A stretch of DNA of 64,000 nucleotides from Bilabrum cf. latius (taxonomy: Eukaryota): contig OZ237738.1 of NCBI GenBank assembly GCA_965178125.1, positions 682,001 through 746,000 on the forward strand, given 5' to 3'. Positions 1 to 64,000 of this stretch are shown one piece after another. Numbering within the stretch: position 1 is the first letter of the stretch; the number at the start of each line of letters is the position of its first letter. Both the position numbers and the translations under genes were made by a program. Below the pieces are notes generated by a model that saw only the letters and a list, made by a program, of their open reading frames with translations, searched no databases and was not told the DNA's origin.

Positions 1-3000
1 GCATCTGGGGCCGGCTCCTCCCTGTCCTCACTGGACGACATCACTGCCTTGCTGGCAGATGCAGGATCTCCGCAAGGCGGCATGATCGGAAGGTCCCAGG
101 CACTTGCGGCAGCTGCACAGGCAGCAGCGCTTGGTGGCTCCGCGCGTCCTCGGCAGGTGCGTCTGTGGGACTCAACAGACGACCCGGAGGATGGTCCCGT
201 GGATTGGGACGAGGTGCCCATCATCATCGAGTCCAAGAGCAAGCAGCCGCCTCCCACTCGCAAGGCTCGTGGGTCTGGCTTTATCCCCTACGATCAGAGC
301 ATCGAGTACGGTGGTGGTCGCACGCTTCGTAGCTATCAGGTGGAGGGTCTGAACTGGTTGCTGGCTGCGTGGCATGGTCGGCGCAACGTCATCCTCGCTG
401 ATGAAATGGGCCTCGGGAAGACGGCTCAGATCATCTCGTATTTTGAGCACCTGCACCGAGCCGACGGAGTGAAGGGTCCTTTCTTGGTCATCGCTCCCCT
501 GAGCACGATTGCCCATTGGAGGCGAGAGACCGAAGCGTGGACGGATATGCAGGCTTGCGTCTACCACGGCAGCGGTGGCCTCGGCAAGACAGGTTCTGAG
601 GTCCGCGCGATGATCCGGGAATGGGAGTGGTACTATCCTGGCTACGCCAAAGAGCCGGCCGCACTTCGGTTTGACGTGCTGATCACAACGTATGAGATCG
701 CCATCCAGGACGTGGAGCACCTGGCAAACATTCCGTGGGTGGTCATGGTAGTTGACGAGGGTCACAGGCTGCGGGGAGCAAGCAGCAAGCTGAAGGAGGT
801 GCTGCAGGGACACCTCTACAACGACCGCGGTGACATTGCCGAGAAGGGCATCGAGGCAGACTTCAGGGTGCTGCTGACCGGCACGCCCCTGCAGAACAGC
901 ATGGCTGAGCTGTGGTCTCTACTGAACTTCCTTGAGCCCGATCTCTTCGACAACTTGGAACAGTTCAACGACGAGTTTGGCGAGCTGCGCACCCAGGAGC
1001 AGGTTGGCAAGCTTCAGCGCATGCTGGCGCCGCACCTCCTACGCCGAGTCAAGGAAGACGTGGAGAAGAGCATCCCCCGCAAGGAAGAAACCATCATTGA
1101 GGTGGAGCTCACCCTCGTGCAGAAACAGTACTACCGGGCTATTCTCGAGAGGAACCGTCTCTTCTTGTACCGTGGGTGTGACAAGAGCAACCTTCCGGGC
1201 CTGTCCAACATCGAGATGCAGCTAAGGAAGTGCTGCAACCACCCGTATTTGATCAACGGCGTGGAAGACAAAGACGTGATAGACTTTGAGCAAGGATTGA
1301 GGCAGCAAGTCAAGGAGCGGAAGCCGGAGCTTGAGGAATTGCGGCGCAAAGAGAAGGCGGCCGCAAGGGGCATGCCAGTGGATCTGTCAGCTGCGACCGT
1401 GGCATCTGCGTCCTCTGCAGCATCATCTTTGTCTTCCTCGTCGGCAAGCGCGTCTGCCTCTGCCACTGGTGAATCCATGGGCGGGCCAGACGCCAAGCGT
1501 GATGGCTCCGGTCATGTAGCAGAGGATGCCGATCTCTTGAGGCTCCATCGCTTGCGACGTCTGCCGGGACAGCACCGTCGCATCGAACGCATGATCGAGG
1601 CATCTGGAAAACTTGTTTTGCTGGACAAGCTCTTGCCCAAGCTCAAGGCAGAGGGCAAGAAGGTGCTCATTTTCACCCAGATGGTTCGCGTGCTCGATCT
1701 CCTGCAGGAGTACTGCCACTACCGCAAGTACAACGTGGAGAGGCTTGACGGCAATATCACAGGCAATGCGCGGCAGGCGGCCATCGACCGGTTCCAGACA
1801 CCAGGCAGCGACTCTTTCGTCTTCATCCTAAGTACTCGCGCGGGTGGGGTGGGCGTGACATTGACTGCAGCCGAGATTGTGGTAATCTTCGACAGTGATT
1901 GGAACCCACAGAATGACTCTCAGGCGCAGGCTAGGGCACACCGCATCGGACAGACGAAGGAGGTCAAGGTGTATCGGTTGCTGACCCGTGACACATACGA
2001 GGCCACCATGTTCTCCAGGGCGTCGAAGAAACTGGCGCTGGAGCGCGCCATCCTCGGGGGTGGCGGGGGCGATGACGGACTGGAGGCCGCGGGCCCAGGC
2101 AGGAAGCGCAAGTCCCGCGGAGGATACAAGCCCTCCCCTGAGGAACTGGAGCAGATGCTGCGGGAGGGCGCGTATGGAGTGCTCTCCAAGAGCGGGGACG
2201 ACGCCTCTCGCAGGTTCCAGTCGGCTTCGATCGACGAGTTGCTTAGCCGCAACACTCGCACGATCGAGGTGCAGCAGGGCACGGGGTTCCGCGGCATGAA
2301 TGTGAGCAAGGCCCAGTTCTCCATCGGGGGACATCTCACGGGTGAGGGGGAGGTGGGCAAGCTGGACATCGATGCGGACGACTTCTGGGAGAGAGTCATG
2401 CCGGGGTACTAGAACTCCAGGAAGCTGCAGGAGCGACTTCGCGCCAAGCGTGAGGACGGAACGAGGGAACTGCAAGGTGCCGACCGCGAGACCAAGACGA
2501 AGAGGGAGGAGCTGCTCAACGACATTGGGACGCTCGTGGACAACCTCGTTGAGCTTCGCAAGCAGCAGAGCAAGGACAGCGAGGGCGCCAGGACGGGTGC
2601 GCTCCACGAGACAGAGGCCGAGATTTCCCGGACCTCGACACTGCTGCACATGGTGTCTGCCATGCAGTCGGTATTTAGTGAAACAGAGAGGGCGCGCGGA
2701 GATGCGCTGCAGATCAGGCTTCTAGGCGACAGGAATCGCCGTGCGGGACGGGCCTCCTTTGGCGGAGACAAGGCGAAGCAGGACAAGGAGCGGAGGAGCG
2801 TCCGGCAGAGGGGAAGGCGTGGTAGGCGCACCCGCGCGATCAGAACGGAGGAGGAGTACGAGGACGGCGAGGACGACGACATGGCAGGGCTTGGTGCCTC
2901 TGATGAGGAAGATGACGTTGGCGATGTGCTCGAGTCATCCGACGAGTCGGTCGCACAGGCGGAAGACTCGGGAGATGAGGCGTACATCGGGTACATCCCG

Positions 3001-3537
3001 AAGGGAGCAGGCAGGGGGAGAGGACGAGGCAGGGGAAGAGGTCGTGGGCGAGGCCGAGGCAGAGGCAGGGGCAGGGGCAGGGGCAGAGGACGAGGCCGTG
3101 GTCGAGGAGGTAGAAGGCTGAGTCGACACCGCATGACCGGACCTGACGATGAAGATGCTCCCGTTCTGTCCCTGCGGGCTGAATTTGCCACTGGTGAGGA
3201 AGTTGCGAACGATGGCAACAGCAGGGAAGTCGCATCGCCTCATCGCGATGCTGGCGTAGATCATGCGATTGGGTCGAAGCGGCCGCGTGGTGAGGAAGAC
3301 GACGATGACGACGACGATGCGCTGGAAGAGGAGCTCTTGGGTGGCCTGGAAGACGACGATGACAGCGATGGCTTCCCTGCAGAGGGGCAGGCCGTGGCAA
3401 ACGGACACGGCTCAGGCTCAGGGCCTCCTAGAGCCGTCCGCATCGTGGTTGGTGCAGATGGCAAGCTCGCTGCGCAAACTGTGGGCAGCAACGGTACAAG
3501 CAACGGTACAAATGCGAACGGCGGTTCCGGTGAGTGA
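1..3537 (+). CDS. CHD-family SNF2 chromatin-remodelling ATPase (5'-partial; in-frame TAG at 2410-2412 read as Gln; TGA stop)
   Basis: Motifs LRSYQVEGLNWL, ILADEMGLGKT, VDEGHRL, LLTGTPLQN, LRKCCNHPYL, SGKLVLLDKLL, FDSDWNPQNDSQAQARAHRIGQ. Track ORFs 49..2412 and 2536..3537 are in the same frame, separated only by one TAG. C-terminal GR repeat and acidic tail. Confidence 0.93.
3009..3110 (+). repeat. (Gly-Arg)n low-complexity coding tract in the CHD C-terminus
   Basis: Degenerate GGCAGG/GGACGA hexamers translating as GRGRGRGR... Confidence 0.8.
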
Positions 3538-3640: not shown

Positions 3641-6600
3641 TCAGTCGCGCAATACCTTGCCGTCACTGTCAATTTCAGCCTAAACGGGTAGCCCGAATGG
3701 TCGATCTTGACGCTATAGGCCGAGCAGGTCCAAAGCCTCATCCAGCACGATTGGATCGGCGTAAGATACCGAGATGCTTCTGTCAAAGTATACATGCTGG
3801 TCCTGCGGGCCACTGTGCCGAGCCATCCAGTGGATGTGACTGGCAATGCGGAGAACGTCTCCAACAGCACAAGACCAATCCCTGCCAAGCAAGCCAGCAA
3901 TGCCATCGATCTCATCCTAGTCGTCGCGACTGCCTACGCGCGGTCGCGAAACGGCAGATCTGGGCCTCGCAGAGACCAAGCTCCCTGGATCCGATCTAAG
4001 GATGACACCAAGGTCACGAAGCGACCTAGCAGATGACCACGGTCCCAGCAATGGCATCTCGACGCGTTTCGAGAACTGGCGCAACACGCCAACACCACTC
4101 AGTAGCTCTGGTCGACTTGTGGTGGCCACGAGGAGGAACCGCCCTGCCCAGCCGGACTGACCTGCGGTGTTGTCCTGCATGCGCTTCTGACCAGCCCTGG
4201 TTGGCTGGTCGATCGACGCGAGGATCGTTGACACCGTATGCAGAGTCTGGTGGGCGGCCTGCACGGAGCCTCCACCCGCACTCACAAGCTCCAAGATCCT
4301 GTCCACGTCCTCTAGGAGCACAACAGATGCTTTGAGCCCCTCCGAGCTGGACACACTCGACATTGAGGTGGCCGGCGACGGGTCGGTCCGCCGTTTCGCC
4401 ATTGACACAATCTCGAGTAGTGCTTGGCTTCTCTGGCTCTGGGGCAACTCCAGCAGCTCGTCTGGAGTCACCACTCGAATTCTAGGTTCTTGCTTGTCTG
4501 GACTGCCCTTCCCATCCAATCGCTGTGCTACCGGTCCAGCGTGCCGCCTCCTGGCTCTGCGATCTTGGGGGGAGCCGCCCTCTGTCGCGAAGTAGTGCGC
4601 TAGCTCCGATGCGATCGCTGATTTTCCCGATCGGCGAGGCCCGTGTAGAAGCAGTGACACCCCTGCATACCCGCGCGGCTTGGGTGGTTGCCCCGAAACG
4701 TGTCCAGGCGCCAGCGTCATCTTGCGAGACCCGCCACCGGACAGAGTGTGGGTCAGGCGAGCGCCCGAGTGGTCCGGCTGCGGCTCGACGGGATGCACAC
4801 CCCACGATGACGCGACGAACTACGCGGCCTGAGCAAGCGCCCTTCTCACGGGCTTGGCTGCCAGCAGTCCGCCTGGTTGCATGTGCTTCTTGATTTCGTG
4901 CGGAGTCATCACACCACGCTCCGAACCGTCCGACTCCGTGCTGGCTTCGCGCTCGTGCTGCTGGCACTCCTCCCTCGAGTCTGCCACGGCAGCCTCAAAG
5001 TCAGACCGCGTGACAGTCAGACCACGTGTGGAGAGACCGGCCGGGGCACCGCCACCTGAGGCTGTCCTAGACGCCATGTCGATGACTCTGCGGAATGATC
5101 GTTCCATAGCTCGTCCCGATGCATCTCTCACGATGCCCGCTACGTCGGCGCCGCTGCAGCCCTCCGCGGCCCGTGCGATGGCACCCAGGTTCACGTCACT
5201 TGCCATCACACCTTGGGACTTCATTTTCTCCGTGTGCACCTCCAAGATGTCCCTGCGGCCCGCCTCGTCAGGGTACCCGATCCTGACGTGCACTTCGAAG
5301 CGGCCCGGTCGAAGCAGCGCTGGGTCAATTACGTCCTTGCGGTTGGTCAGCCCAAGCACTAGCACGTTGTCTTGCTCCGACAGCCCGTCCATCTTGGCCA
5401 GTATCTGATCAACTACGCCGTCATAGAGATGCTGGGCTGGGCTGTTCTCCTCCCCAGCACCTGACCGCCTGGTGCACAGCGCGTCCATCTCGTCGATGAT
5501 GATCACGTGAAGGCCAGACGCCTCCCCTTTGGCCGCCCACTCCTGCTCAGCAGGGGCAAACAGGGCGCGCACATTGCCTTCAGACGCGCCAACATACTTG
5601 CTTAGTATCTCTGGCCCTGCCACGAAGCGCACCGAGCTGCTCTGCAGGTAGTCGGCCAGCCGCCTAGCAAGGAGCGTCTTCCCCACTCCGGGCGGGCCGT
5701 ACAGCAGCGCGCCCTTGACGTGGCTGGCACCCATCGCTCGCAGCGTGTGCCTCGGAATGGCCCTCGAAGCAAACAGCCTCCGGAAGAGCTCGCTGATTTC
5801 CTTGTCCAGACCCCCCACGCCGAGCTCGGACCGCGCGTCAAAGTCGAACGGGTTGAAGCGAAGCTCGTACGAGACCGCTCGCTCCAGCTTCAAATTGTGA
5901 ATTCGTTTCACGGGCATGCGTGGTTCAGTGCCTGCCGCCGCTCGCTGAGCCGATGTACCGCTGCTTGGGGCGCCCTATCCCGTGCTCCGCCCCCGAGCGA
6001 TGGTGCGATCATCCACAAAGTTGGCCCGCAGGTCGTTGCCCTCTCCGAAACCAGGAGGAATGGTGCACGTGAACGTGCCCGCCACAGACCGCTCGCAACC
6101 AGTGGCCTGCTGTCCCCCAATATGCAGAGAGGAGAGCCTCACGCCCAGGGAAAACTCACCGTGCAGCCGGATCTTTGCCCCTCCCCCGGTAGGACACCGC
6201 CTGATGTCGTCGACGAATCCGATCGGAGGCTGTGGCGGCTTGTTCTTGCGGTTGGCACTCTAACCATTCCCCGATTGCTGGCCAAGCTGCTGGCCAGAGT
6301 TGGGCTGCGTGCGAGCTCCCTGGGCTGCTCTCGGTCCTTGCTGCCCTAGGGGACCCCTAGGATCCTCTAGAGCACGCATCTGCCCGTCGTGCAGCGGCAC
6401 GTCACACCCTGAGATGCCCTTCAACGAAATAGGGGTATTCTGGAGATGGTGTGGCTGGGTGCTGCTCGCCTGCGCTGGCGGGGTCTGCCGGGCGCTGTGG
6501 TCGATGGCCCCGGCGGCTGGAGCGGACTACTTGCGAGAGCTCGATGATGTGGCTGCTGATGGAGGAGACCCAAGGGGAGCGTCTGTACCGGGCCCTCCGG

Positions 6601-7327
6601 CTTCAGAGGGAGTATTTCCTTTGGAAGGGGACTGGATCGGCGGCGGAGTGACTGCTGGGGAACCCTGCGGCGTTGCGCAAGCTGCAAACGCCGCCACTTG
6701 CACCCGGTACGTGCAGATGCCCTTATCAGTCCCCTCCCGAATCTGCATGAGCCGCGGCAGCGCTGCCGACCGATCGCAGTGCACTTCCAATGTGGTCTTT
6801 CGAAACTTTGCGGTGCCAGCTGTCGTTATGCCTTGGCATCGGGACCCGTCACGGTACTCCAGCGCAAATCCAGCACCGGGCTGGCCTGGGTCCAGCAGCC
6901 GTACGCCAAGGCTCTCGGGCGAAAATTGACCCCCAGCATCCACAAAATCGGCGATAGATACGCATGAACCAATGGCAGATGAATCAGAGGGGGTATGGGG
7001 CAAAGACTTGAGGAGAGTCTACTTCGGGGACTCCCCGACAGGGCGATTCTACTTGTCGACCTTGGGCGTGCGCAGGCACGAGATCGGTGCACAAATTCCG
7101 GTCCGAAATAGAGCCCCATTCTATCCTCCGACTCTACCAGTAAGGTAGCTGCCAAGAAGACCGTTCAAGAATGGAGCTTCGTGCCCCACGGCTGACAACA
7201 GTTGTCGGATCGACTCTCCACATCGCTTGGTCGAAAACTTCCACTGGTGCTCCGGCATTCGCCGATTTGCCAATGAAACACCCGAAAGAAGCAATAAAAA
7301 AATAGTCACAGACAGCGAATGCGCCAT
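3641..7327 (-). CDS. Signal peptide + MRH (mannose-6-phosphate receptor homology)-like + IPT/TIG-like + NSF/Sec18-like double AAA+ ATPase, ~1228 aa with TAG=Gln
   Basis: Track ORFs 7121..7438, 6527..7003, 4820..5917 and 3917..4798 share one frame, with only TAG (10 counted) from ATG 7327 (MAHSLSVTIFLLLLSGVSLA) to TGA 3641. D1 has GVGGLDKEISELFRRLFASR, GPPGVGKT, IIIDEMD, TNRKDVIDPALLRPGRFEV. D2 has GPRRSGKS and LLEDVD. MRH-like segment LEYRDGSRC..RKTTLEVHCD..REGTDKGICTYRVQV..AAC. Confidence 0.8.
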
Positions 7328-7625
7328 CACTGCGTATGCGCTCCCAGAGCGTTCAAATTGTGTTGCCACGACTTTCGCAATGATGGAGAGAAGCAATTCA
7401 GATGGATCGCACCGTGACCTGTTGCTGTGGTGTTGCAAGGCCGCACAAGGGTGATGATGTGGCTGCGGCAGTTGCGGTGCACTTTGTGTTATTGATCATG
7501 CTGCAAGTGCAGCCGTCCGCAGTTGGCATGTTTGATGGGCTAACCTGGAACGGCCTGCCCCAGGTGGGCCATTCCATGGGCAAAACCGCTAATTCAACAG
7601 CAAGGGCACATGTTCGAGGCCACAT

Positions 7626-10600
7626 TCACAGACGAACAGAAGCGGCGCCTGCAATCCTGCGAAGGACTCCAACACCGAGTAGCTTATCAACTTCCTCCCC
7701 GCGATCCGTTGTATCCGCTGCCCCTGTCGCACGCTCAGATGATCCAGAAGTGGACACCGCATCGACATCTTCTGGCTGTCCCATAGACAAGCCCTTGAGC
7801 AATTTTGTCATGTCTCGCATAACTTCTGCTTGCCTTCCTATTGCGTCCTACCTATCTGTTTCGATATCATTCCTCACCTGCGCCAGCAGAGCGGAAGCAA
7901 GACCATCGAGCTCGCGCTGCTCCCTCAGCTGCAACTCCGCCTCTGCTATCTGCTTCTCTAGAGATATACACATCTCAGCTTCTTCCTGCATCGCTTTCTG
8001 CAGCAAACCAGCATCAAATTCTGGACCATCCGCTCGTAAATCCACCTGCTTGGCTGAGACAGCGAAACGATCCAACCCTGCAAGCTCATCGAGCTGCGTG
8101 CTATCCGCCTCTGATGCCGATCCGCTGCCTGCTGGTTCTGCATTCGAGGCTGATTCGGTCGGGAGAGCAGAAAGCGCAGTATGATTGGTCTGAGGTTCCA
8201 AACGGCCACTGGGGTGGTCACTGTCCAGCAAATGGTGGCGGCCCTCAGAGAATCCTGTGGCCTTCGCTGTCGACGCTGACAGCCCAAGGATCTCTGCCAG
8301 TGTAACGTCGTCCTCGGTGCGCTTAAATGTACTGCTTCCATCAGACTATACAGTCTACGATTCTTTCCTAATGTAGTGTCTGTGACCGTCGTCGATAGCC
8401 ATCATGCTGCTGCCGCCGCCTGCCGTGGCACCAGACTGTGAATCTACATCTTGCGTGCCATCCTCAGAATCAGCAGCATATGCAGCCGAGAACTCTTTAC
8501 CAAGAAGTGCTTCCTCGCTCTGAACAGGCGAACTCCTTGGTAGGCCGCTATTTGCATTTCTAGACGGACATTCGGTCGACTGCTTGGACTCTGCTAAGCT
8601 AGACCTGGGTTGTTCTATCTCCTCTGATGCTGCCAGTGGATCAGCGCCCCCCCCTGCATCCAGAGCGGAAAAAGCCATGAGCTCAGTGCCCAAATCTGGG
8701 TAGTTGTCGATTCGCTGCGGAGCACCGTCACTGCTTGTCGTTCCACCACGGGCATGCATCGCGTCTTCCCCCCCAGGACCACGCAATCTACCTCTGGATG
8801 CCGCACTGGCAGTGTCGCTGGCTACGCTAGTCGAACCACGCCCCGACGACTACTGATCCTGATCCTGATCCTACTGCTGCACCCATTGCGACAAATCCAC
8901 TAAACCTCCGTCGATTGCAGGAGATTGTGACGACGAAACTCCTGAAGGTCCTTGCCAGCTATCATGCTCCAGCTGCAGCTGCAGCTGCAGCTGCAGCTGC
9001 AGCTGCGGTGGCACCGGAACCTGCCGTTCCCTCGCTGGCCGCCCCAGGCCGCCAGGGCTTGGCATCTGCGACATCGTTGGAGAGTACAGGATGCTTTCTT
9101 GCAATGCACTTCGGGCTCTAACTCGAGACAGGGGCGCGGCAGTGCTACCTCGTCTGTATTCTGCCAGCGCCTGCTCCTGGAGCGCCTTGAGCTGCTCCTT
9201 GGAGACTGGGCTGGCAAACCCACCCGACTCGCTATAAATGAATGAGGAAGCCTCTTCTGCCTATGGTTGCTTTCCTCGCAATTGAGGCGTCCTGCTTGGG
9301 GGGCTAGGCTAGGCACTGGTGATCGGAACTCCTGACGTGTCAAGACGGGTCGGTCTCTGCGATGTAGGACCGTCATTCGAGACAGTGCCAGCATGCGCAG
9401 AGGGTGAGACCGGCTGATTGGAATGGGCGGCCCTAGAATTGGACTACCCGCCCGTAACACACTCTATTTCTGCAGTAGACTCGCCCGTAGACTCTGTGTT
9501 GCCGAGTTCAAGGCTATTGTGCCTAGCTGTTGCATGGCTCTGGCTGGTGCTGGGAGCAGCCACGATGCCATCGCCATCAGATTCCCGCGCTGCTGAATCA
9601 ATCTCGCGGCCACTGCTAGCCTCAGCGGAGCTGCTAGCATCTGTGCCTACCACCTTGACTTTCACCTCAGACTTCAGGGGCGAAGTACCTGCGGAGGGTG
9701 GCTTGACGCCCCGCAGCACAGGCCGCTTCGGTGGCGGCGGGTGCTAGAGCCGACTGCTTGCAAGCGCACTATCTTTTTCCTCTCTTAGGACAGGCTAGCT
9801 AGCCTGCTGCTTAGAAGCACCAGTAGTGTCTATCCCGTCGATCTGCCTGGCAGGAGCTATCCCGTCGATCTGCCTGGCAGGAGGCTTAGGCGGCGAGGAA
9901 GTTCTCGCTGGAGGAGGAGGCGGAGGAGGAGGCGGCGATCCTTTTTTGGCTGCTGGGGCTACTGCAGCGGCGGCTTCCACCTGCTGGCTTTCTGAATGCT
10001 CGGCATGATCGCCAGCAATCTCGCCCACATGTCCCAACGAACCTCCAGGAGATCGAATGCTCAGACCTCTTGGCGGTTCGCCCTGATCCTTCATTGGCGA
10101 CTCATGGGCATAATCGCTTGTAGAGCTGCGAATAGAAGCAGCCTACTCACTGCCAACGGCATGCTCAGCTACATGGGTGTCTCTAACCTCAGCTACAACT
10201 CCATCAATAGAGTCGTGCAAGACATCCAAAGTCTGATCTGTCAGATCAGTCTCCACATCTGGTGCTCCGGGCAGAGCCATCCTCGAAGGGGGGGGTAGAG
10301 GTACGGATTCGCTCGCTTTGACCCCATCCTAAACTCCGCCCTTGCCCTTGCCCTAGCTCTTGCTCTTGCTCTAGCTCTTGCTCTTGCCCTTGGGTCCCGG
10401 CGGGGAGGCCTTGGCGCCGGCTGCATTCCCTGTGCTCTTGCCCTTGCACTTGCTCTTGCCCTTGGGTCCCGGCGGGGAGGCCTTGGCGCCGGCTGCCTTC
10501 CCTGTGCCCTTGCTCTTGCTCTAGCTCTTGCCCTTGGGTCCCGGCGGGGAGGCCTTGGCGCCGGCTGCATTCCCTGTTCCCTTGCTCTTGCTCTAGCTCT

Positions 10601-12257
10601 TGCTCTTGGGTCCCGGCGGGGAGGCCTTGGCGCCGGCTGCATTCCCTGTGCTCTTGCCCTTGCACTTGCTCTTGCCCTTGGGTCCCGGCGGGGAGGCCTT
10701 GGCGCCGGCTGCCTTCCCTGTGCCCTTGCTCTTGCTCTAGCTCTTGCCCTTGGGTCCCGGCGGGGAGGCCTTGGCGCCGGCTGCATTCCCTGTTCCCTTG
10801 CTCTTGCTCTTGCTCTTGCTCTTGCCCTTGGGTCCCGGCGGGGAGGCCTTGGCGCCGGCTGCATTCCCTGTTCCCTTGCTCTTGCTCTTGCTCTTGCTCT
10901 TGGGTCCCGGCGGGGAGGCCTTGGCGCCGGCTGCATTCCCTGTGCCCTTGCTCTTGCTCTAGCTCTTGCTCTTGGGTCCCGGCGGGGAGGCCTTGGCGCC
11001 GGCTGCATTCCCTGTGCCCTTGCTCTTGCTCTTGCTCTTGCCCTTGGGTCCCGGCGGGGAGGCCTTGGCGCCGGCTGCATTCCCTGTTCCCTTGCTCTTG
11101 CTCTAGCTCTTGCCCTTGGGTCCCGGCGGGGAGGCCTTGGCGCCGGCTGCATTCCCTGTACCCTTGCTCTTGCTCTAGCTCTTGCCCTTGGGTCCCGGCG
11201 GGGAGGCCTTGGCGCCGGCTGCATTCCCTGTACCCTTGCTCTTGCTCTAGCTCTTGCTCTTGGGTCCCGGCGGGGAGGCCTTGGCGCCGGCTGCATTCCC
11301 TGTGCCCTTGCTCTTGCTCTAGCTCTTGCTCTTGGGTCCCGGCGGGGAGGCCTTGGCGCCGGCTGCATTCCCTGTGCCCTTGCTCTTGCTCTTGCTCTTG
11401 CCCTTGGGTCCCGGCGGGGAGGCCTTGGCGCCGGCTGCATTCCCTGTTCCCTTGCTCTTGCTCTAGCTCTTGCCCTTGGGTCCCGGCGGGGAGGCCTTGG
11501 CGCCGGCTGCATTCCCTGTACCCTTGCTCTTGCTCTAGCTCTTGCCCTTGGGTCCCGGCGGGGAGGCCTTGGCGCCGGCTGCATTCCCTGTGCCCTTGCT
11601 CTTGCTCTAGCTCTTGCCCTTGGGTCCCGGCGGGGAGGCCTTGGCGCCGGCTGCATTCCCTGTGCCCTTGCTCTTGCTCTTGCTCTTGCTCTTGCCCTTG
11701 GGTCCCGGCGGGGAGGCCTTGGCGCCGGCTGCATTCCCTGTGCCCTTGCTCTTGCTCTTGCCTTTGGGTCCCGGCGGGGCTTTGGCAGCCGGAAGTGGCA
11801 TTGGTGCTTGGGACAACCCAGACGGCACGCTATGACCCCGTGGCAGCTTGCCAGGTTTAGGTGGGGATCTGTTGGGCTATGGGGGCAGCTTCCTGCTGGA
11901 CTCTTTTCGAAGCATTGAGCTGCTTCCGGTATCTTGCCCGTCATCGATCTTCACGAGAACTCTTTTCGACGGCTTCTTCGGCTGCCGTACAGACGCCACT
12001 CGTCGCACCCGCGGCTTGGTGGTGGGCTTTGCGGACAAACTTGGGCTAGATTTCATTCTGGAGAGTGGCCGGGAAGATACGCTGCCACCAGATGCTTGCT
12101 CGGCAGCATCCAAGTACGGTTGTTTAGATTTTCTCCTCGTCTTCTTTCCAGCAATTGAGAGTGATGGAGCTGCAGCACGCGGTGGAGCTGGCAAAGTTCC
12201 CTTCTTATTTTGAGGTATAGACTAATTTGGGGGTGGTGGTATCGCTTTGCGTGGCAT
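7626..12257 (-). CDS. Large low-complexity protein (~1540 aa) with Lys/Ser/Pro tandem repeats, poly-Pro and C-terminal coiled coil; function unknown; start could be 12257, 12290 or 12302
   Basis: Track ORFs 11877..12194, 11607..11828, 9795..10094, 9444..9719, 8871..9104, 8355..8786, 7848..8231 and 7626..7820 are all in one frame. The gaps contain only TAG and the frame ends at TGA 7626. Confidence 0.75.
10339..11780 (-). repeat. Coding minisatellite, ~19 units of 72 bp (some 78 bp), peptide KASPPGPKGKS(K/Q)SKSKGTGNAAGA
   Basis: Direct tandem repeat visible in sequence. The GGC/GGA/GGT variation is synonymous (Gly) in the frame continuous with both flanking coding regions. Confidence 0.95.
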
Positions 12258-12354
12258 GCAGCCACCAATGTTGGAATGTGCAACAGCCATATCGCCGCGC
12301 ATTTTGGTTCCGCTTTTCCCTACCGTTTGCAGAGCTTGCAATTCTCAGGTGACA

Positions 12355-13461
12355 ATGTCGCGAAACGCTGCTCGTAGAAAAGGAAAGGCAAAGGTTTCAA
12401 AAACAGAACAGGACTTGAAGTATTAGCTTGAAGATGTTCACATCGAGCTCGACCGGAGATGCGATCGAATCCGACAGGAGGCAGAGGACTCTGTCCTCGC
12501 ACTAAAGAATTGCTTGTCTGTGCAGCTTGCGAAGCTACCAACAGCAGTAAGAAAGCAGAAAGTGCTTCCATTGTGGCATGATTGCTAGCAGAGTATGAGC
12601 CGCTTGATTGCAGCGGCGAGTGCTCCAGTAGCTCGCTAGCCTCTTGCTGCTGCGTCTGGGGCAAGCTTGGTTTCTGCTGCCAAGGCCAGGATTGGCGGCA
12701 AGAGGTCCGCAATTCAGACCATTAGCCACGTTAGCAAGGTAAGCAGAACACCGTTGAATTCGTGCTTATCTCCGAAAGCCAATACTGTTTATATCCGTAA
12801 GTCAGCTTCGTTGCATGCTATCGCCCTCGCGCAGAAATCTCGAATAGGAAATGGAGCTGCCGCTGCAGGCCGCGCAGCCCCCAAGACGCCTGGGGCATCG
12901 AAATCGTCCAGAAGCGGTGTTGTTGCAGGCGCGATGCGAAGCGCCCGGCCCGGCGGGGCATACTCGCGGTTGCCAACCACACCGGGTACGGCCATGAGGC
13001 GAGCCAGACGGGGCGAAATTATGCTGTCTGCGAACGGATCTCCTCTTACCGTGGCTGGACCAAGGGCGCGAGCCGCCGTTGGCCTAGGGCTCGCCGCGTC
13101 CTCTTCCTCGTCCGGTTCCAGTGCAGGCGCGGGGGCCACAAGCCACAAGTCCTCCTCATCCTCCTCGTCTGCCTCGTCTGCTGCCGGCGAATCGGCGACT
13201 GCCACCGGAGTGGATGAAGAGGAGGGCATTGCAATCGACGTTGCTCTTGGGGATGGCATGGCTGTTGACGTGTCAGACCCGAGCGCGCTTGCCGGTCTCC
13301 AGGGAGAGGACAAGGAGCGAGCGGTGCAGCAGCTCCTCGAGCTGCAGGCCAAGCTGGCTTCCATCGTGGGGTCTTTGCAAGGGCCTGGAGAGAGTAGTGG
13401 TAGGTCTGGGGCAGCATCAGGGGCTGCCAAGGCTGGCAGGCCACCACTCGGGACGGACTGA
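12355..13461 (+). CDS. Borealin/Nbl1-like chromosomal passenger complex subunit (probable intron ~12739-12834)
   Basis: ATG 12355 gives MSRNAARRK...Y*LEDVHIELDRRCDRIRQEAEDSVLALKNCLSVQLAKLPTAVRK, resembling Nbl1/Borealin_N. In frame with RRARRGEIMLSANGSPL and a C-terminal helix; TGA stop. Confidence 0.7.
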
Positions 13462-45627: not shown

Positions 45628-45678
45628 AAATGGCAGGCGCAGCCGCGCGAATACCAGCCCACATGCAATACTAGCCAA

Positions 45679-48600: not shown

Positions 48601-49290
48601 CTGCGGGCCGCGCATGCCACGAAGCTGGCCAGCTACGGCAGGCCCGTCGACCTCGGAGCGCTCGGCGTCCGGATCGGAGGAGAAGACAAGTGGTGTCCTG
48701 GGACCGTGAGGACGCAGAAAGGGGCGGTACGCAGTGGCGTGCGGGTCGTACCCTTTGTGGTGGACGTGTTGGGGGGGATCGGGGAGAAGTCGGTCGAGTT
48801 CCTGTAGGTGCTCGATAAGCTGCGGAAGAAGAGGCAGGAGGACAAAGGGCGGCGGGTTCCGACTCGTCCGGCCAACGCGCGCCTCTCGTGGTCTTCCGTG
48901 GCAAAGGCTCGCCTCTCCGTTGCCGCCTAGCACCAGCACGTGCGCGGGGAACAGCGTGTGTACCACACTATGTACTCAAGGGTCATGCAGGACCACTCAA
49001 GGATCCTCGATTTTGTCTCGAAGGGATCGAGGAGGGCTGCAGCGAAGGCCAAACGGGCGCTCGCAAGGGCGATCCGAGAGGACTTTGCCAGCCTGGCTGT
49101 AGGGGCAGCCGAAAACAACAACCTCGCCGTGGCGATCGCCAACGTCAAGGCAGGGTTGGCTCAGAACGGGCAGCAGGACGGGGTGCCGGCAGCGGGCGCC
49201 GGAGGGAACGTGAATGCTGACGCTCCCCATGGGGAAATGGGTCCCCAGGGTGGAGCTTAGGTGGCTTAGGCCATTGCAGCTGAAGCGTGA
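45679..49290 (+). mobile_element. Non-LTR retrotransposon-type ORF (CRE/SLACS-like, RT + Cys/His knuckle + restriction-like endonuclease), ~1203 aa, uninterrupted under TAG=Gln
   Basis: RT motifs IPKGEGGSEFRVIA, PHQMGAGLKCG, ALDASDAYGSIHR, GVL*GSPLSPALF, AYLDD (46759-46773), GLSLN*KKT, LRILGVPVG, RGGLG. RLE motifs GAGSWL, C..C/H..C, RRH, RGDL...IDVTVV, KLASY, PFVVDVLGGIG. 14 in-frame TAGs, no TAA/TGA or frameshift until TGA 49288. Confidence 0.9.
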
Positions 49291-55474: not shown

Positions 55475-58400
55475 ATGGTGGCCTTCAGGGCGATTGGGCT
55501 TGCATTCGTGATCTCTGTGGCTGGCTTGGCCTCCGCCGGCTGCCCAAACGACTGCAGCTCGCGAGGACAATGCGTGAACAACGCCCAATGCCAATGTTTT
55601 GATGGGTTTACTGGCGTTGATTGCTCGCAGCGTGAGATGGTGCAGCCCTGTGCTCAAATGCGATCTGGAGCGTCGTGCTTTGAACGACTACCTCGTTGAC
55701 AGGCCCCCCTCATCGTTTCATGTCGCAGGCACGTGCGCCAAAGGCGAAGTTTGGGTGTCACGACCTGACACTGAAGGAGTTCTCCATGGAAGCATGGAGG
55801 AATGCAGCAACCGTGGCACCTGTGACCGATCCACCGGTCTCTGCGAGTGCCTGCCGGGCTACGAGGGCCTCGCTTGCTAGCGCAGTGAGCTTGCCCGCAC
55901 ACTACCTCCGCATTGCTCCCATTATTGGTTCTTATTAGGTTGTGTTGCGGAAAGTTCGGCGGATATAGTTTGGGAGCATCGTTCCTGAGGACGCTGCCCT
56001 TTAGCATGCTGTTGCCTCCTCGTCTTGCTGCTTTCGCCATTCTTTATTGCTTTAGCACCGTCAATCACAATTGCTTCACTCATTGCGCAGCTTCGTGTCC
56101 GGCGGACTGCAATGACAATGGTGTGTGCTCCACCATCGAGCAGATCGGTGATCATCTCGCCTCCGGCTCCACGGATCCCTCCACTGGGGTGCAAGACTTC
56201 GGTGTTGAGTACACCAACTGGGACAAAGAGAGCTCTGCTGGGTGCGTCTGTGACTTTGGGAGGTTCGGACCGGACTGCTCCCTGACCATGTGCCCAAGGG
56301 CCGACAACCCCTCCACTGACGTGCAGCACGACTACACGTTCGTCTTTTCCGTGGGCGCCAACGGAACCAATGGGGGTGCAGACTCTCTCACGGGAGAGTT
56401 CGGACTATTCTTTGCTGGGCAGCAAGCCACGCTTCCTTTCCCTGCTCAAAACGCCTCCGAGGTGCTTTGCGAGCTCTCCTTCGAGAGCCTCCCCAACGTC
56501 GAAGACGTTGACTGTGTCAGGACGACGTCTAATTTTACCGCGGGAGCGCACTCGTTCGTCGTGCGAGTCAAAGAATTCTCTGCTTTTGATGGCAACAAGC
56601 AGAACAACCTGTGGAACCACGACGGCAAACCGCCGCTGTCCTACTTCGCGTGCTCGCTGGGGAGCGCCAACTCCACTGGCTTCGGGGAGCCGGAGTGCTC
56701 GTTCTTCGAGTTCGACCGGAACATCGAGACGGAGTTCAACAACACCTTCTTCGGAATTGTGGACACCTAGTACACGATCGAGGTGTTCGACGACCAGGTG
56801 AGGCCCAACACTTACCGGTTCAGGACATAGATCAGCAACTGGTCGGAACCCCTCCCCATGAACGCCTCGTTTCACCCAGACATGGGTCTGGATGACGACG
56901 GCGTTGTCATCAAGTTCAACTCGATCGTTGGACATACTAAAGGAACGCGGTGGACCATCAGCGCCAGGGCAAGTACTGGAGACATCGACGAGCCCCGGCT
57001 GGCTAGCGATGCTCGAGAGTTCGACATGTGCGCCGGGAACGGCATCTGCGACACATCAACGGGCCTCTGCAGCTGCTTCGACGGATACGAGGGGGCAGAC
57101 TGCGCAACGGAGCGGTTTTTGTCGAATGCAACCGAGAATCTGCCGGGCAGCTGGGTCAGGGCCTCGAGCCCAACCTACCTTGGAGACGTGCTTCGTCTCA
57201 CAACCGAGAAGGGCCCACGGGATGACTTCAATCTGCTCTACGCGCAAAGTGGAAACAAGACCCAGTTCTTTGTGAGGGGTGATGGATTCATGTTCGTTGA
57301 GGACCTTTTCGTGAACAGCATCCTTCGGCTTCGGGAAGGTGAGTTCCAGGCACTCCGCATTACTGGGGACGGCCTCACCATCGAGCAAGGCGGCCTTGTG
57401 ATCGACCTAGATGGCGCCACCATCCACGACGGTGGTCTAGCTATCAATGACGACGGTGCTCTCATTCAAACAAACGGCAATGAGCACGCCCTTCACGTCG
57501 TGAGTCGCGCAACTAGCGGATACACGTCGACGGTGCTGCAGGTGTCATCGGAGCAGCCCCGTGGCGACACATTTAGGCTGGCCGAGCTGGACACTGACGG
57601 CGATGTGGTTTTTACCGTGTCCGGCAACGGTCAAGTTCGCTCTGAGCACGGAGGTGTGTGGATTGACGAAGTCGGTCTGCACGTCGAGTCAGGTGGCGGC
57701 ACGATCGTCGATGGCGGACTGTTTGTGCAGAACCGCGAGCCGAATGATCCGGTGCTGCACGTCAGCATGGATGATCCAGACTTCAACAGCGTTGGTATCA
57801 ACATCACTTCCGACGAGCTTGCATCTTTCTCGAACTACTTCTTCTTTCAGGCCGTCAACACGGATGGTTAGATTCATTCTATTCGTGGGGACGGCCTCAC
57901 GACCATCTCCCGTGGCGGTTTGCTGATTGAGAGCGGCGGTGCTACCATGGTCGGAGGCGTGTTCATTGAAGACGGTCTCACTATTACTACAGGCGGCGTG
58001 CACGTCGAGGACGGCGATGTTAACATTCAGAATGGAGCACTCAATGTCCGCGAGAATGGAGCCATCATCACGTCGGAATTGCAGAGCGTCTCGCCCTTGG
58101 TTTTACGGGCCACAGACAACAACTTCGATGAGACAATCTTCAATGCTCAGACCACGCGGGATCCTTCAGACGAATACAACATGTACCGGTACGAAACTGC
58201 AACCGAGACAATGTCCCTTTTCTCCGGCGACGGCTTTAAGCAGGAGACGGTTTTGAGCAATGACAACCGTGCTTTGTACCACTTGAGGCGCGCCCGCGAT
58301 TCGGGCGGTAGCCCTAGCGCTGTGAGCGACGGAGAAATATTGCGTCACATCGAATTTCAGGGGTACGGTGGAACTGACTACCAGCCCTCGGCAGGAATCC

Positions 58401-61400
58401 GAGCCGTCGTTGACGAGACAATTCCATCTGACACCGCAATGGGTGGATCTCTGCTGTTCTACACTTCAGAGGCAACAACGAACACCTTAGAACAACGAGT
58501 ATTGATAGACTCCACTGGTGTTGTCACTATCGGAAACACCCCGAACGAGCGCATCGTGATTACACCGGGCGTGGAAGGCCAAATTCGAGCGCAAGACGAG
58601 TTGCATCTCGATGCTAGGAACGATGTTGAGGTTACCTCGGAGAACGGCGACATCAGCCTCATTGCTGATAACAGCATTGTTGGCATCGCCCTGAATGGGT
58701 TTGTGGACGTTGATTCCCTACTTACCCAATCTTACACGTCTGGTGGCCAGACGACCATAGAAACAACCGACCAGACAGGGTCTGCTGGTGCAGACATGCT
58801 TCTGCAAACTGGCGCAAGTGATATTGCAACCGGTGGAAGCATCAGTATTTTGACCGGTGCATCGACAGGCTCTACCTCCGGACAACTTGAACTTCGGACT
58901 GGACAATCAACGACTGGAAGCTCCGGAACGATCGTAGTGGCCTCTGGAGATTCATCAGGTGCACAATCGGGAGCAGTATCCATGCACTCGGGAGCAACAG
59001 ACACAACTAATTCGGGTCTCGTAACCATCAATAGTGGAGCCGCAACATCTGGAGCATCCGGAAATCTACTGATAGCGTCTGGTACATCCACGGTAGGAAT
59101 GTCCGGAACAGTACAAATATAGTCAGGTACTGCAGTATCAGCTGCATCTGGCGGCGTGAGCGTGCTGTCTGGGTCGTCGTCGCTTGACTCGTCGGGCGCG
59201 GTGACTGTGGGCTCTGGCACGTCCGACGTGGATGTGACGGGCGCGGTGACTGTGCGGTCTGGCGATGCGGCATCAGCGTCATCGGGCGCGGTGAGCGTGG
59301 CGTCGGGCGCATCGACGAAGGCGGTGTCTGGCGTGGTGACTGTGGGATCGGGCGCGGCGGTGTCGGCTGCATCTGGCGGCGTGAGCGTGCTGTCTGGGTC
59401 TTCGTCGCTTGACTCGTCGGGCGCGGTGACTGTGGGCTCTGGCACGTCCGACGTGGATGTGACGGGCGCGGTGACTGTGCGGTCTGGCGATGCGGCATCA
59501 GCGTCATCGGGCGCGGTGAGCGTGGCGTCGGGCGCATCGACGAACGCGGTGTCTGGCGTGGTGACTGTGGGATCGGGCGCGGCGGTGTCGGCTGCATCTG
59601 GCGGCGTGAGCGTGCTGTCTGGGTCTTCGTCGCTTGACTCGTCGGGCGCGGTGACTGTGGGCTCTGGCACGTCCGACGTGGATGTGACGGGCGCGGTGAC
59701 TGTGCGGTCTGGCGATGCGGCATCAGCGTCATCGGGCGCGGTGAGCGTGGCGTCGGGCGCATCGACGAACGCGGTGTCTGGCGTGGTGACTGTAGGATCG
59801 GGCGCGGCGGTGTCGGCTGCATCTGGCGGCGTGAGCGTGCTGTCTGGGTCTTCGTCGCTTGACTCGTCGGGCGCGGTGACTGTGGGCTCTGGCACGTCCG
59901 ACGTGGATGTGACGGGCGCGGTGACTGTGCGGTCTGGCGATGCGGCATCAGCGTCATCGGGCGCGGTGAGCGTGGCGTCGGGCGCGTCGACGAACGCGGT
60001 GTCTGGCGTGGTGACTGTGGGATCGGGCGCGGCGGTGTCGGCTGCATCTGGCGGCGTGAGCGTGCTGTCTGGGTCTTCGTCGCTTGACTCGTCGGGCGCG
60101 GTGACTGTGGGCTCTGGCACGTCCGACGTGGATGTGACGGGCGCGGTGACTGTGCGGTCTGGCGATGCGGCATCAGCGTCATCGGGCGCGGTGAGCGTGG
60201 CGTCGGGCGCATCGACGAACGCGGTGTCTGGCGTGGTGACTGTGGGATCGGGCGCGGCGGTGTCGGCTGCATCTGGCGGCGTGAGCGTGCTGTCTGGGTC
60301 TTCGTCGCTTGACTCGTCGGGCGCGGTGACTGTGGGCTCTGGCACGTCCGACGTGGATGTGACGGGTGCGGTGACTGTGCGGTCTGGCGATGCGGCATCA
60401 GCGTCATCGGGCGCGGTGAGCGTGGCGTCGGGCGCATCGACGAACGCGGTGTCTGGCGTGGTGACTGTGGGATCGGGCGCGGCGGTGTCGGCTGCATCTG
60501 GCGGCGTGAGCGTGCTGTCGGGCGTGTCTGACAAGGATGTGACGGGCGCGGTGACTGTGCGGTCTGGCGATGCGGCATCAGCGTCATCGGGCGCGGTGAG
60601 CGTGGCGTCGGGCGCGTCGACGAACGCGGTGTCTGGCGTGGTGACTGTGGGATCGGGCGCGGCGGTGTCGGCTGCATCTGGCGGCGTGAGCGTGCTGTCT
60701 GGGTCTTCGTCGCTTGACTCGTCGGGCGCGGTGACTGTGGGCTCTGGCACGTCCGACGTGGATGTGACGGGTGCGGTGACTGTGCGGTCTGGCGATGCGG
60801 CATCAGCGTCATCGGGCGCGGTGAGCGTGGCGTCGGGCGCATCGACGAACGCGGTGTCTGGCGTGGTGACTGTGGGATCGGGCGCGGCGGTGTCGGCTGC
60901 ATCTGGCGGCGTGAGCGTGCTGTCGGGCGTGTCTGACAAGGATGTGACGGGCGCGGTGACTGTGCGGTCTGGCGATGCGGCATCAGCGTCATCGGGCGCG
61001 GTGAGCGTGGCGTCGGGCGCATCGACGAACGCGGTGTCTGGCGTGGTGACTGTGGGATCGGGCGCGGCGGTGTCGGCTGCATCTGGCGGCGTGAGCGTGC
61101 TGTCTGGGTCTTCGTCGCTTGACTCGTCGGGCGCGGTGACTGTGGGCTCTGGCACGTCCGACGTGGATGTGACGGGCGCGGTGACTGTGCGGTCTGGCGA
61201 TGCGGCATCAGCGTCATCGGGCGCGGTGAGCGTGGCGTCGGGCGCATCGACGAACGCGGTGTCTGGCGTGGTGACTGTGGGATCGGGCGCGGCGGTGTCG
61301 GCTGCATCTGGCGGCGTGAGCGTGCTGTCGGGCGTGTCTGACAAAGATGTGACGGGCGCGGTGACTGTGCGGTCTGGCGATGCGGCATCAGCGTCATCGG

Positions 61401-64000
61401 GCGCGGTGAGCGTGGCGTCGGGCGCATCGACGAACGCGGTGTCTGGCGTGGTGACTGTGAGATCGGGCGCGGCGGTGTCAGCTGCATCTGGCGGCGTGAG
61501 CGTGCTGTCTGGGTCTTCGTCGCTTGACTCGTCGGGCGCGGTGACTGTGGGCTCTGGCACGTCCGACGTGGATGTGACGGGCGCGGTGACTGTGCGGTCT
61601 GGCGATGCGGCATCAGCGTCATCGGGCGCGGTGAGCGTGGCGTCGGGCGCGTCGACGAACGCGGTGTCTGGCGTGGTGACTGTGGGATCGGGCGCGGCGG
61701 TGTCGGCTGCATCTGGCGGCGTGAGCGTGCTGTCGGGCGTGTCTGACAAGGATGTGACGGGCGCGGTGACTGTGCGGTCTGGCGATGCGGCATCAGCGTC
61801 ATCGGGCGCGGTGAGCGTGGCGTCGGGCGCATCGACGAACGCGGTGTCTGGCGTGGTGACTGTGGGATCGGGCGCGGCGGTGTCGGCTGCATCTGGCGGC
61901 GTGAGCGTGCTGTCTGGGTCGTCGTCGCTTGACTCGTCGGGCGCGGTGACTGTGGGCTCTGGCACGTCCGACGTGGATGTGACGGGCGCGGTGACTGTGC
62001 GGTCTGGCGATGCGGCATCAGCGTCATCGGGCGCGGTGAGCGTGGCGTCGGGCGCGTCGACGAACGCGGTGTCTGGCGTGGTGACTGTAGGATCGGGCGC
62101 GGCGGTGTCGGCTGCATCTGGCGGCGTGAGCGTGCTGTCTGGGTCTTCGTCGCTTGACTCGTCGGGCGCGGTGACTGTGGGCTCTGGCACGTCCGACGTG
62201 GATGTGACGGGCGCGGTGACTGTGCGGTCTGGCGATGCGGCATCAGCGTCATCGGGCGCGGTGAGCGTGGCGTCGGGCGCATCGACGAACGCGGTGTCTG
62301 GCGTGGTGACTGTGGGATCGGGCGCGGCGGTGTCGGCTGCATCTGGCGGCGTGAGCGTGCTGTCTGGGTCTTCGTCGCTTGACTCGTCGGGCGCGGTGAC
62401 TGTGGGCTCTGGCACGTCCGACGTGGATGTGACGGGCGCGGTGACTGTGCGGTCTGGCGATGCGGCATCAGCGTCATCGGGCGCGGTGAGCGTGGCGTCG
62501 GGCGCGTCGACGAACGCGGTGTCTGGCGTGGTGACTGTGGGATCGGGCGCGGCGGTGTCGGCTGCATCTGGCGGCGTGAGCGTGCTGTCGGGCGTGTCTG
62601 ACAAGGATGTGACGGGCGCGGTGACTGTGCGGTCTGGCGATGCGGCATCAGCGTCATCGGGCGCGGTGAGCGTGGCGTCGGGCGCATCGACGAACGCGGT
62701 GTCTGGCGTGGTGACTGTGGGATCGGGCGCGGCGGTGTCGGCTGCATCTGGCGGCGTGAGCGTGCTGTCTGGGTCTTCGTCGCTTGACTCGTCGGGCGCG
62801 GTGACTGTGGGCTCTGGCACGTCCGACGTGGATGTGACGGGCGCGGTGACTGTGCGGTCTGGCGATGCGGCATCAGCGTCATCGGGCGCGGTGAGCGTGG
62901 CGTCGGGCGCATCGACGAACGCGGTGTCTGGCGTGGTGACTGTGGGATCGGGCGCGGCGGTGTCGGCTGCATCTGGCGGCGTGAGCGTGCTGTCGGGCGT
63001 GTCCGACGTGGATGTGACGGGCGCGGTGACTGTGCGGTCTGGCGATGCGGCATCAGCGTCATCGGGCGCGGTGAGCGTGGCGTCGGGCGCGTCGACGAAC
63101 GCGGTGTCTGGCGTGGTGACTGTGGGATCGGGCGCGGCGGTGTCGGCTGCATCTGGCGGCGTGAGCGTGCTGTCTGGGTCTTCGTCGCTTGACTCGTCGG
63201 GCGCGGTGACTGTGGGCTCTGGCACGTCCGACGTGGATGTGACGGGCGCGGTGACTGTGCGGTCTGGCGATGCGGCATCAGCGTCATCGGGCGCGGTGAG
63301 CGTGGCGTCGGGCGCATCGACGAACGCGGTGTCTGGCGTGGTGACTGTAGGGTCGGGCGCGGCGGTGTCGGCTGCATCTGGCGGCGTGAGCGTGCTGTCT
63401 GGGTCTTCGTCGCTTGACTCGTCGGGCGCGGTGACTGTGGGCTCTGGCACGTCCGACGTGGATGTGACGGGCGCGGTGACTGTGCGGTCTGGCGATGCGG
63501 CATCAGCGTCATCGGGCGCGGTGAGCGTGGCGTCGGGCGCATCGACGAACGCGGTGTCTGGCGTGGTGACTGTGGGATCGGGCGCGGCGGTGTCGGCTGC
63601 ATCTGGCGGCGTGAGCGTGCTGTCTGGGTCGTCGTCGCTTGACTCGTCGGGCGCGGTGACTGTGGGCTCTGGCACGTCCGACGTGGATGTGACGGGCGCG
63701 GTGACTGTGCGGTCTGGCGATGCGGCATCAGCGTCATCGGGCGCGGTGAGCGTGGCGTCGGGCGCGTCGACGAACGCGGTGTCTGGCGTGGTGACTGTGG
63801 GATCGGGCGCGGCGGTGTCGGCTGCATCTGGCGGCGTGAGCGTGCTGTCTGGGTCTTCGTCGCTTGACTCGTCGGGCGCGGTGACTGTGGGCTCTGGCAC
63901 GTCCGACGTGGATGTGACGGGCGCGGTGACTGTGCGGTCTGGCGATGCGGCATCAGCGTCATCGGGCGCGGTGAGCGTGGCGTCGGGCGCATCGACGAAC
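55475..64000 (+). CDS. Giant secreted protein (3'-partial): signal peptide, mastigoneme(Sig1/Ocm)-like EGF region, beta-rich fibre-like region, 15-aa Ser/Gly/Ala/Val repeat array; introns ~55632-55728 and ~55885-56090
   Basis: [84 protein letters not shown]. TAG at 55878, 56768, 56828, 57869 and 59120; the frame stays open through the repeats to the window end. Confidence 0.85.
59147..64000 (+). repeat. Near-perfect coding tandem array: 225-bp (5x45) units interspersed with 180-bp (4x45) units
   Basis: About 16 long units, 6 short units and a partial unit. Long unit SGGVSVLSGSSSLDS/SGAVTVGSGTSDVDV/TGAVTVRSGDAASAS/SGAVSVASGASTNAV/SGVVTVGSGAAVSAA; most variants are synonymous on the + frame. 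Confidence 0.95.

Follow-up and report, generated by a model that had tools for sequence, protein, structure and literature searches.

Evidence that UAG encodes glutamine in a nuclear genome with stramenopile-like affinity

Introduction

The question raised by the locus described here is what the triplet TAG means in it. The locus is a stretch of 64,000 nucleotides (the window) from positions 682,001 to 746,000 of contig OZ237738.1 in the genome assembly GCA_965178125.1 of Bilabrum cf. latius. An earlier interpretation made from the letters of the window (the sequence-only reading) held that nearly all of its genes are broken by in-frame TAG and by no other stop codon, and that UAG has been reassigned to glutamine (Gln) while UAA and UGA still end genes. 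The follow-up reported here supports that proposal by homology, by the statistics of conserved alignment columns, by polyglutamine context and by related sequences found elsewhere, and we conclude that UAG is very probably a sense codon for Gln in this organism, with UGA and UAA retained as terminators.

Homology across in-frame stop codons

Homology was searched with the standard code left in place. In tblastn comparisons of the window with 305 homologues of three of its gene products, a KIF9-type kinesin, a CHD-type helicase and a glycoside hydrolase of family GH59, the 604 high-scoring segment pairs (HSPs) ran across eight distinct stop codons, and all eight are TAG; a TAA or TGA was spanned by none of the 604 HSPs from the 305 homologues of these three families. 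Such crossing is independent of how open reading frames (ORFs) are drawn, and it is therefore a cleaner test of the code than ORF length. Positions of the genes and of the individual codons discussed below are given in Table 1.

The amino acid at TAG

Two TAGs lie in motifs where every aligned homologue has Gln. One is in the kinesin P-loop (YG-Q-TG-GKT), where all 120 aligned homologues and all 123 HSPs have Gln, and the other is in a conserved motif (..L-Q-GSPLSP..) of the reverse transcriptase (RT) of a retroelement, where it is present in all 147 aligned library representatives and where three related metagenome loci (L001, L002 and L003, see below) have CAG; direct inspection of the letters confirmed TAG at both sites. 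At two further TAGs, GH59 residue 579 (24 of 65 homologues) and RT site q261 (64 of 147), Gln is more frequent than any other residue.

When log-odds were summed over 14 TAG sites, those with 20 or more homologues aligned, Gln was the one residue with a positive total (+18.9 bits); the next best was Arg (-8.4), and Ser, Leu and Tyr fell to -21.1, -34.2 and -38.4 bits, respectively. The same procedure, run as a calibration on every codon with at least eight sites in the same four genes, gave 56 of the 58 sense codons their standard meaning and narrowly missed CAA and GTA, and the score per site was higher for TAG (1.35 bit) than for CAG (0.76). The context of the codon agrees with this assignment: a Gln-rich ORF of 1773 codons contains, in frame, a (CAG)9(TAGCAG)13 tract, and Gln is enriched 2.5-fold within two positions of TAG. 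Pyrrolysine was considered as a meaning of TAG and ruled out, as the genes are eukaryotic and TAG occupies positions of invariant Gln.

Frames and codon counts

With TAA and TGA as the sole stops, 18 candidate ORFs with 18,569 codons were drawn in the window. They contain 138 in-frame TAGs, 558 CAG and 196 CAA, so that TAG makes up ~15% of the Gln codons; the sequence-only reading, counting by hand, had put the in-frame TAGs at over 100. It had also counted 19 complete ORFs, all ending in TGA or TAA. We count 17, and they do all end in this way, 12 with TGA and five with TAA, the latter at exactly the five positions it had given. Eleven of the TAG-bearing ORFs have Pfam domains, and together these hold 46 TAGs. 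The 138 TAGs are not all independent, as 27 are in an ORF that contains a 72-bp tandem array and 13 are in the (TAGCAG)n microsatellite.

Since these ORFs are bounded by TAA and TGA, their lack of internal TAA and TGA is partly circular and their length is no clean test. Among ORFs of at least 800 amino acids, reading TAG as sense gives 15, compared with six when TGA is read as sense and four under the standard code.

Related copies in other records

The RT ORF has many relatives, a protein-library search returning 3113 proteins at E ≤ 0.001, and some of these are short, near-identical pieces of the same element family. Library protein P0306, 99% identical, shows Q, E and Q opposite three window TAGs and terminates, as a standard-code protein, just ahead of the next one; P0312, 100% identical, terminates just ahead of the RT-motif TAG. 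Judged by where they end, both are evidently products of standard-code gene callers, and through them the TAGs are also documented in a public assembly other than this one.

A scan of metagenome contigs with the RT ORF gave eight loci (L001-L008) at 54-66% identity. In L001, 1150 codons could be aligned, 67% of them the same as in the window, and over this length the locus has 11 in-frame TAGs and no in-frame TAA or TGA. Across all eight loci, of which many are redundant, TAG accounts for 38 of the 42 in-frame stops within HSPs, and at RT query residue 526 (q526) L001-L006 all have TAG. A window TAG stands opposite Gln or TAG in L001 at 7 of 12 sites, which is the same proportion as for window CAG and CAA (25 of 43), and in the other direction the 11 TAGs of L001 are opposite a window Gln six times and a window TAG once. 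In its Cys-rich C-terminal part the window RT ORF may resemble non-LTR elements of the R2/NeSL type, which end in a restriction-like endonuclease.

The contig of locus L007 (1-4908) extends the comparison to cellular genes. It carries a prolyl oligopeptidase ORF of 867 codons with eight TAGs and no TAA or TGA, and an endonuclease/exonuclease/phosphatase-like ORF of 772 codons with five TAGs, the Pfam match of the latter being just under the curated cut-off. The two ORFs are divergently oriented, and the other end of the contig carries a piece of the related RT element. In alignments of the peptidase with five PDB chains, four of which are near-identical mammalian enzymes, two of the TAGs are at Gln in five of five, and one each falls at Asp, at Arg and at Met/Glu. 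Going by these sequences, at least one related environmental organism evidently has the same reading of TAG, and its presence on metagenome contigs points to a lineage living in the environment rather than to one aberrant assembly.

Observations that do not fit

Several observations weigh against the assignment of Gln to UAG. The one clear counter-example is the TAG in the G-Y-N motif of the kinesin, which is in a strongly Tyr column (Tyr 103, Val 11, Phe 4, Ile 2 and Gln 0 of 120 homologues); with TAG read as Gln, the motor would carry Gln in place of the motif Tyr. Several TAGs are in variable columns with little Gln, namely GH59 residue 126 (2 of 64), SNF2 residue 804 (1 of 57) and RT site q312 (5 of 145). 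Opposite window TAGs, close RT copies have E, K and R as well. The number of ORFs of at least 500 amino acids is 23 with TGA as sense and 22 with TAG as sense, so length is non-specific at this level, and ORF length was dropped as a test of the code since, at this threshold, TGA as sense lengthens ORFs too. Some genes may terminate at TAG, as three ORFs have one within 21 codons of their end. The sample, moreover, is one 64-kb window in which many of the TAGs are in repeats.

The TAGs of an aldo/keto reductase (AKR) and an HpcH/CitE-type lyase, compared with PDB chains, are in columns that vary (K or P in the first, G in the second) and tell nothing about the residue. Reading TAG as Gln makes the codons of Tyr (TAY), Lys (AAG) and Glu (GAG) one-step neighbors of a Gln codon, and this would account for the odd partners.

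Mechanism and alternative explanations

If UAG is now an ordinary Gln codon of the host, with UGA and UAA terminating, then by analogy with other eukaryotes that read UAG as Gln it would be decoded by a tRNA-Gln with a CUA anticodon, charged by the normal GlnRS, and the N-terminal domain of eRF1 would no longer recognize UAG. ARAGORN and Rfam found no tRNA gene in the 64-kb window, in which no Rfam family reached its gathering score, and no tRNA gene was found in L001-L008; the window has no eRF1 gene either.

The same code could also operate with no dedicated tRNA-Gln(CUA), if near-cognate tRNAs (tRNA-Gln CUG, perhaps tRNA-Tyr) read a UAG on which eRF1 has lost its grip. Read-through of UAG in standard-code eukaryotes inserts Gln, Tyr and Lys, and the kinesin TAG at the conserved Tyr would be in keeping with such decoding. 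There is also a precedent at another codon, the UGA of Blastocrithidia being decoded by a modified near-cognate tRNA (PMC13092985). The summed column evidence, on the other hand, indicates Gln and not Tyr, and the share of TAG among the Gln codons, with 13 of them in one tract, argues for efficient cognate decoding; near-cognate decoding appears unlikely to us.

In an ambiguous code, UAG would be Gln within genes and a context-dependent stop in some of them. Context-dependent use is made of the stop codons in Condylostoma and of UAA in Blastocrithidia. In the window, the last TAG lies 7, 13 and 21 codons before the closing stop in the RT ORF, an AAA ATPase ORF and an ORF of 1359 codons, respectively, and homology does not fix where these three truly end. 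Against this, TAG shows no significant excess among the final 50 codons (10 of 850, compared with 124 of 14,998 elsewhere; Fisher p = 0.25), and 0 of the 17 complete ORFs require TAG as a terminator. In the GH59 and AKR genes, the last TAG is inside the Pfam domain and the closing TGA and TAA, respectively, stand where the homologues end. For GH59, with a set of 65 homologues, 13 of the best 15 end at query residues 961-979 of 979, within 18 residues of the TGA. The AKR was aligned to residue 268 of PDB chain 4fzi_A (290 amino acids) at query residue 367 of 388; its TAA is 21 residues past the last aligned position and 4fzi_A has 22 left, and thus the TAA sits where solved AKRs end. We regard an ambiguous code as distinctly unlikely.

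A code of the type of NCBI table 6, in which UAA and UAG both encode Gln and UAA escapes notice because a GC-rich genome uses it so seldom, is very unlikely. Codons ending in A are indeed a minority here (CAA 196 vs CAG 558), and UAA would be expected to be rarer than UAG; if TAA:CAA tracked TAG:CAG (138:558), however, ~48 in-frame TAAs would be expected, and there are none in the homology-supported stretches, nor among the eight homology-crossed stops, nor in L001 or the L007 peptidase. Five ORFs do end in TAA, among them the AKR with its TAA at the C-terminus of solved AKRs.

Sequencing or assembly error such as C-to-T damage (CAG to TAG is one transition), RNA editing and nonsense mutation of pseudogenes are together extremely improbable, since damage would also have given ~48 each of TAA (from CAA) and TGA (from CGA), source codons that number 196 each, and none is homology-crossed, since TAG positions of the window are TAG again in a separate 99% copy and, as at q526 in L001-L006, in diverged copies from other records and the same TAG pattern is seen in an unrelated gene on a metagenome contig (L007), since decay would scatter all three stops as well as frameshifts, and since editing of UAG to CAG, though possible as far as DNA can tell, would have to hit every TAG and no TGA or TAA.

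Gene content of the window

The window comes from the nuclear genome, rich in GC, of a flagellum-bearing microbial eukaryote. Its G+C content is ~61% overall and 56-70% across 4-kb bins, and reading it with TAA and TGA as the only stops gives a dense run of long ORFs on both strands. The ORFs recognized by Pfam are typical eukaryotic nuclear genes of 12 families, from the CHD helicase to an iminopeptidase-like hydrolase (Table 1).

Table 1. Genes, ORFs and individual codons in the 64-kb window; ORFs were drawn with TAA and TGA as stops, and values after Pfam families are E-values.
Feature	Position	Strand	In-frame TAG	End	Evidence or remark
CHD-type SNF2 helicase ORF, 5'-open	1..3537	+	1	TGA	Pfam SNF2-rel_dom 8.1e-70, Helicase_C
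Single TAG of CHD ORF	2410-2412	+			spanned by 57 HSPs
AAA ATPase ORF	3641..7495	-	10	TGA	Pfam AAA 1.2e-37, AAA_lid_3
Lys/Ser-rich repeat ORF	7626..12344	-	27	TGA	coding status: open frame only
Borealin-like ORF	12226..13461	+	3	TGA	Pfam Nbl1_Borealin_N 3.1e-07, Borealin 1.8e-05
GH59 galactocerebrosidase-like gene with ricin domain	13687..16626	-		TGA 13687-13689	Pfam Glyco_hydro_59 1e-81
In-frame TAGs of GH59	16249-16251, 14890-14892, 13960-13962	-			
ORF of unknown function, 1359 codons	17800..21879	+	9	TAA 21877-21879	no Pfam family
ORF of unknown function, 1712 codons	22477..27615	-	17	TGA	no Pfam family
ORF of unknown function, 429 codons	27991..29280	+	3	TAA 29278-29280	no Pfam family
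AKR	29376..30542	+	2, one in domain	TAA 30540-30542	Pfam Aldo_ket_red 2e-30
Proline iminopeptidase-like alpha/beta hydrolase	30730..32008	-			two exons in different frames
GST_N/glutaredoxin-fold ORF	32009..33244	-	1	TGA	Pfam GST_N_3 7.1e-08
KIF9-type kinesin	33411..36137	-	5	TGA	Pfam Kinesin 1.2e-77
Kinesin P-loop TAG	35874..35876	-			Gln column
Kinesin G-Y-N motif TAG	35901..35903	-			Tyr column
RING-variant and FHA ORF	37334..39832	+	3, one in FHA	TGA	Pfam FHA 5.2e-10, RINGv 3.6e-08
Short ORF	40009..40779	-	0	TAA 40009-40011	
HpcH/CitE-type lyase	41599..42435	-	1	TAA 41599-41601	Pfam HpcH_HpaI 3.6e-35, profile 49-221
HAT1-like ORF	43051..45627	+	3	TGA	Pfam Hat1_N 5.5e-10
RT ORF of retroelement	45628..49290	+	14	TGA	Pfam RVT_1 2e-17
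RT-motif TAG	46666..46668	+			Gln column
Gln-rich low-complexity ORF, 1773 codons	49671..54992	+	32	TGA	
(CAG)9(TAGCAG)13 tract	52263..52367	+			in frame in the Gln-rich ORF
Very long ORF, 3'-open	55889..64000	+	4		EGF-like domains; 225/405-bp tandem repeats

The AAA ATPase ORF has 1284 codons, and its Pfam matches span residues ~583-1011 only; the N-terminal ~560 residues, which belong to no Pfam family and contain six of its ten TAGs, may be a separate upstream gene or an untranslated region read through in frame. In the neighboring Lys/Ser-rich ORF, the C-terminal 724 residues gave no Pfam family. A 72-bp tandem array on its strand (10361-11758, 19.2 copies with 94% matches) encodes a Lys/Ser/Gly/Ala-rich repeat, and one position of the repeat switches between AAG (Lys) and TAG from copy to copy.

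The proline iminopeptidase-like gene is divided between two frames. The Pfam domain Abhydrolase_1 (2.5e-28) covers positions 1-113 of the 245 of its profile in the ORF at 31310-32008, both TAGs of the gene lying upstream of the first Met, and the remainder of the fold is found in another frame in the ORF at 30730-31311. The reading breaks after '...WFYEGKGA' and is picked up at '...SQFIYPDAW...', and from the sequence the break is evidently a short spliceosomal intron of ~80 nt that encloses the TGA of the first ORF. This frame-shifting intron means that spliceosomal introns exist in the genome, though they are sparse. The HpcH and kinesin ORFs are without the N-terminal parts of their profiles, which suggests further introns.

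Among the other ORFs, that of 1712 codons had 91 pattern matches and no relatives on metagenome contigs, and the short ORF at 40009 has a weak Pfam match below the cut-off (2_5_RNA_ligase2, 20.3 vs 27 bits). The last 663 residues of the Gln-rich ORF gave no Pfam family. The very long ORF at the right end exceeds 2700 codons; EGF-like domains near its start are followed by 225-bp and 405-bp repeats that encode a Ser/Gly/Ala/Val-rich array, and its product looks like a giant surface protein.

At least half of the sampled 31-mers from 29300-39200 of the window are present in sequencing runs from three studies, under at least three organism labels. Twelve sequencing-run rows (seven studies) contain this stretch or part of it, none of them recorded as RNA. 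By the sharing of 31-mers alone, the source organism may travel co-cultured or associated with others.

Host lineage

The sequence-only reading had taken the host to be a flagellated stramenopile. KIF9-type kinesins imply flagella, and the assignment of the kinesin to this type agrees with its 120 homologues, several of which are named KIF6/9 or KIF9 by their source. Of the first 50 matches in the CHD search, 15 are listed with an organism, and 14 of those are from stramenopiles, namely a diatom, a chrysophyte and otherwise oomycetes. The remaining one, the fish protein P0121, is the top CHD match and was kept out of the tree, as its score is inflated by a duplicated helicase domain and does not reflect closeness. 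A FastTree phylogeny of 33 CHD sequences (513 trimmed columns) groups the query with P0125 (61% identity) as sister to a clade of oomycetes and an ochrophyte (diatom), on a long branch and with a weak support of 79. In the KIF9 tree the query, on a long branch and of deviant composition, is not placed. The flagellum and the stramenopile-like CHD matches back the earlier description in part, the placement itself coming from one gene, CHD, and we lean toward a stramenopile host, probably outside the oomycetes and ochrophytes.

Comparison with known codes

The reassignment of both UAA and UAG (UAR) to Gln, NCBI table 6, is known from many ciliates, some ulvophytes, Hexamita, Streblomastix and Amoeboaphelidium, and these systems presumably use suppressor tRNA-Gln and an altered eRF1. 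They share with the window the reading of UAG as Gln and differ from it in that TAA behaves as a terminator here.

The closest parallel in codon table is the fornicate Iotanema spirale, in which UAG is Gln and UAA and UGA are stops, corresponding to NCBI code 15 (Panek et al. 2017, PMC5304391). UAG is described there at sense positions only; in Iotanema as in the window it aligns to Gln, with UAA and UGA ending genes. The eRF1 of Iotanema has T32G in the GTS motif, and eRF1 changes are discussed in the same article for the rhizarian exLh as well. Iotanema is, however, an anaerobic metamonad, whereas the CHD of the window organism groups with stramenopiles and its genome has ~61% G+C; UAA is moreover the predominant terminator of Iotanema in that account, whereas TGA leads here (12 vs 5).

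UAG alone is also read as Gln in Protocruzia tuzeti and in two phyllopharyngean ciliate lineages (PMC11687900), a recurrent and independent evolution of one variant. These are ciliates, whereas nothing in the window is ciliate-like and its best CHD matches are from oomycetes and ochrophytes. UAG has likewise parted from UAA in exLh and Scotinosphaera, where UAA and UGA still terminate, but the amino acid differs, being Leu in the first and Ser in the second (PMC5304391, PMC11687900). The precedents listed in the sequence-only reading were slightly incomplete, as PMC11687900 also names Protocruzia tuzeti, the two phyllopharyngean lineages and Scotinosphaera.

The code variant itself is therefore already known, and what would be new is a host with stramenopile-like affinity. 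The sequence-only reading knew of no nuclear UAG=Gln code in stramenopiles, and our search of the full-text literature, which left most subscription journals outside its reach, likewise turned up no report of one, nor of any nuclear stop-codon reassignment in the group. That the window represents an independent and unreported origin of a UAG=Gln-only code, in a deep lineage of stramenopiles or of the wider stramenopile-alveolate-rhizarian (SAR) group that is GC-rich, is present in several metagenomes and has retroelements adapted to the code, is a proposition that we hold to be evenly balanced.

Significance

If this is true, stramenopiles would gain their first case of nuclear stop-codon reassignment. 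Nuclear codes that split UAG from UAA are few (Iotanema, a rhizarian, Scotinosphaera and some ciliates, according to PMC11687900 and PMC5304391), and a further independent case, on a branch in another supergroup and at 61% G+C, would add a data point on the recurring changes of eRF1 and tRNA. It would also sit badly with AT pressure as the driver of UAR reassignment, and provide a test of codon-capture models.

There is a practical side as well. Gene callers that use the standard code fragment the proteome of such an organism, and P0306 and P0312, cut at TAG, are already public. As relatives in metagenomes share the reading, surveys may be mis-translating a whole lineage. The finding is thus of interest both for the study of code evolution and for the annotation of the host and its environmental relatives.

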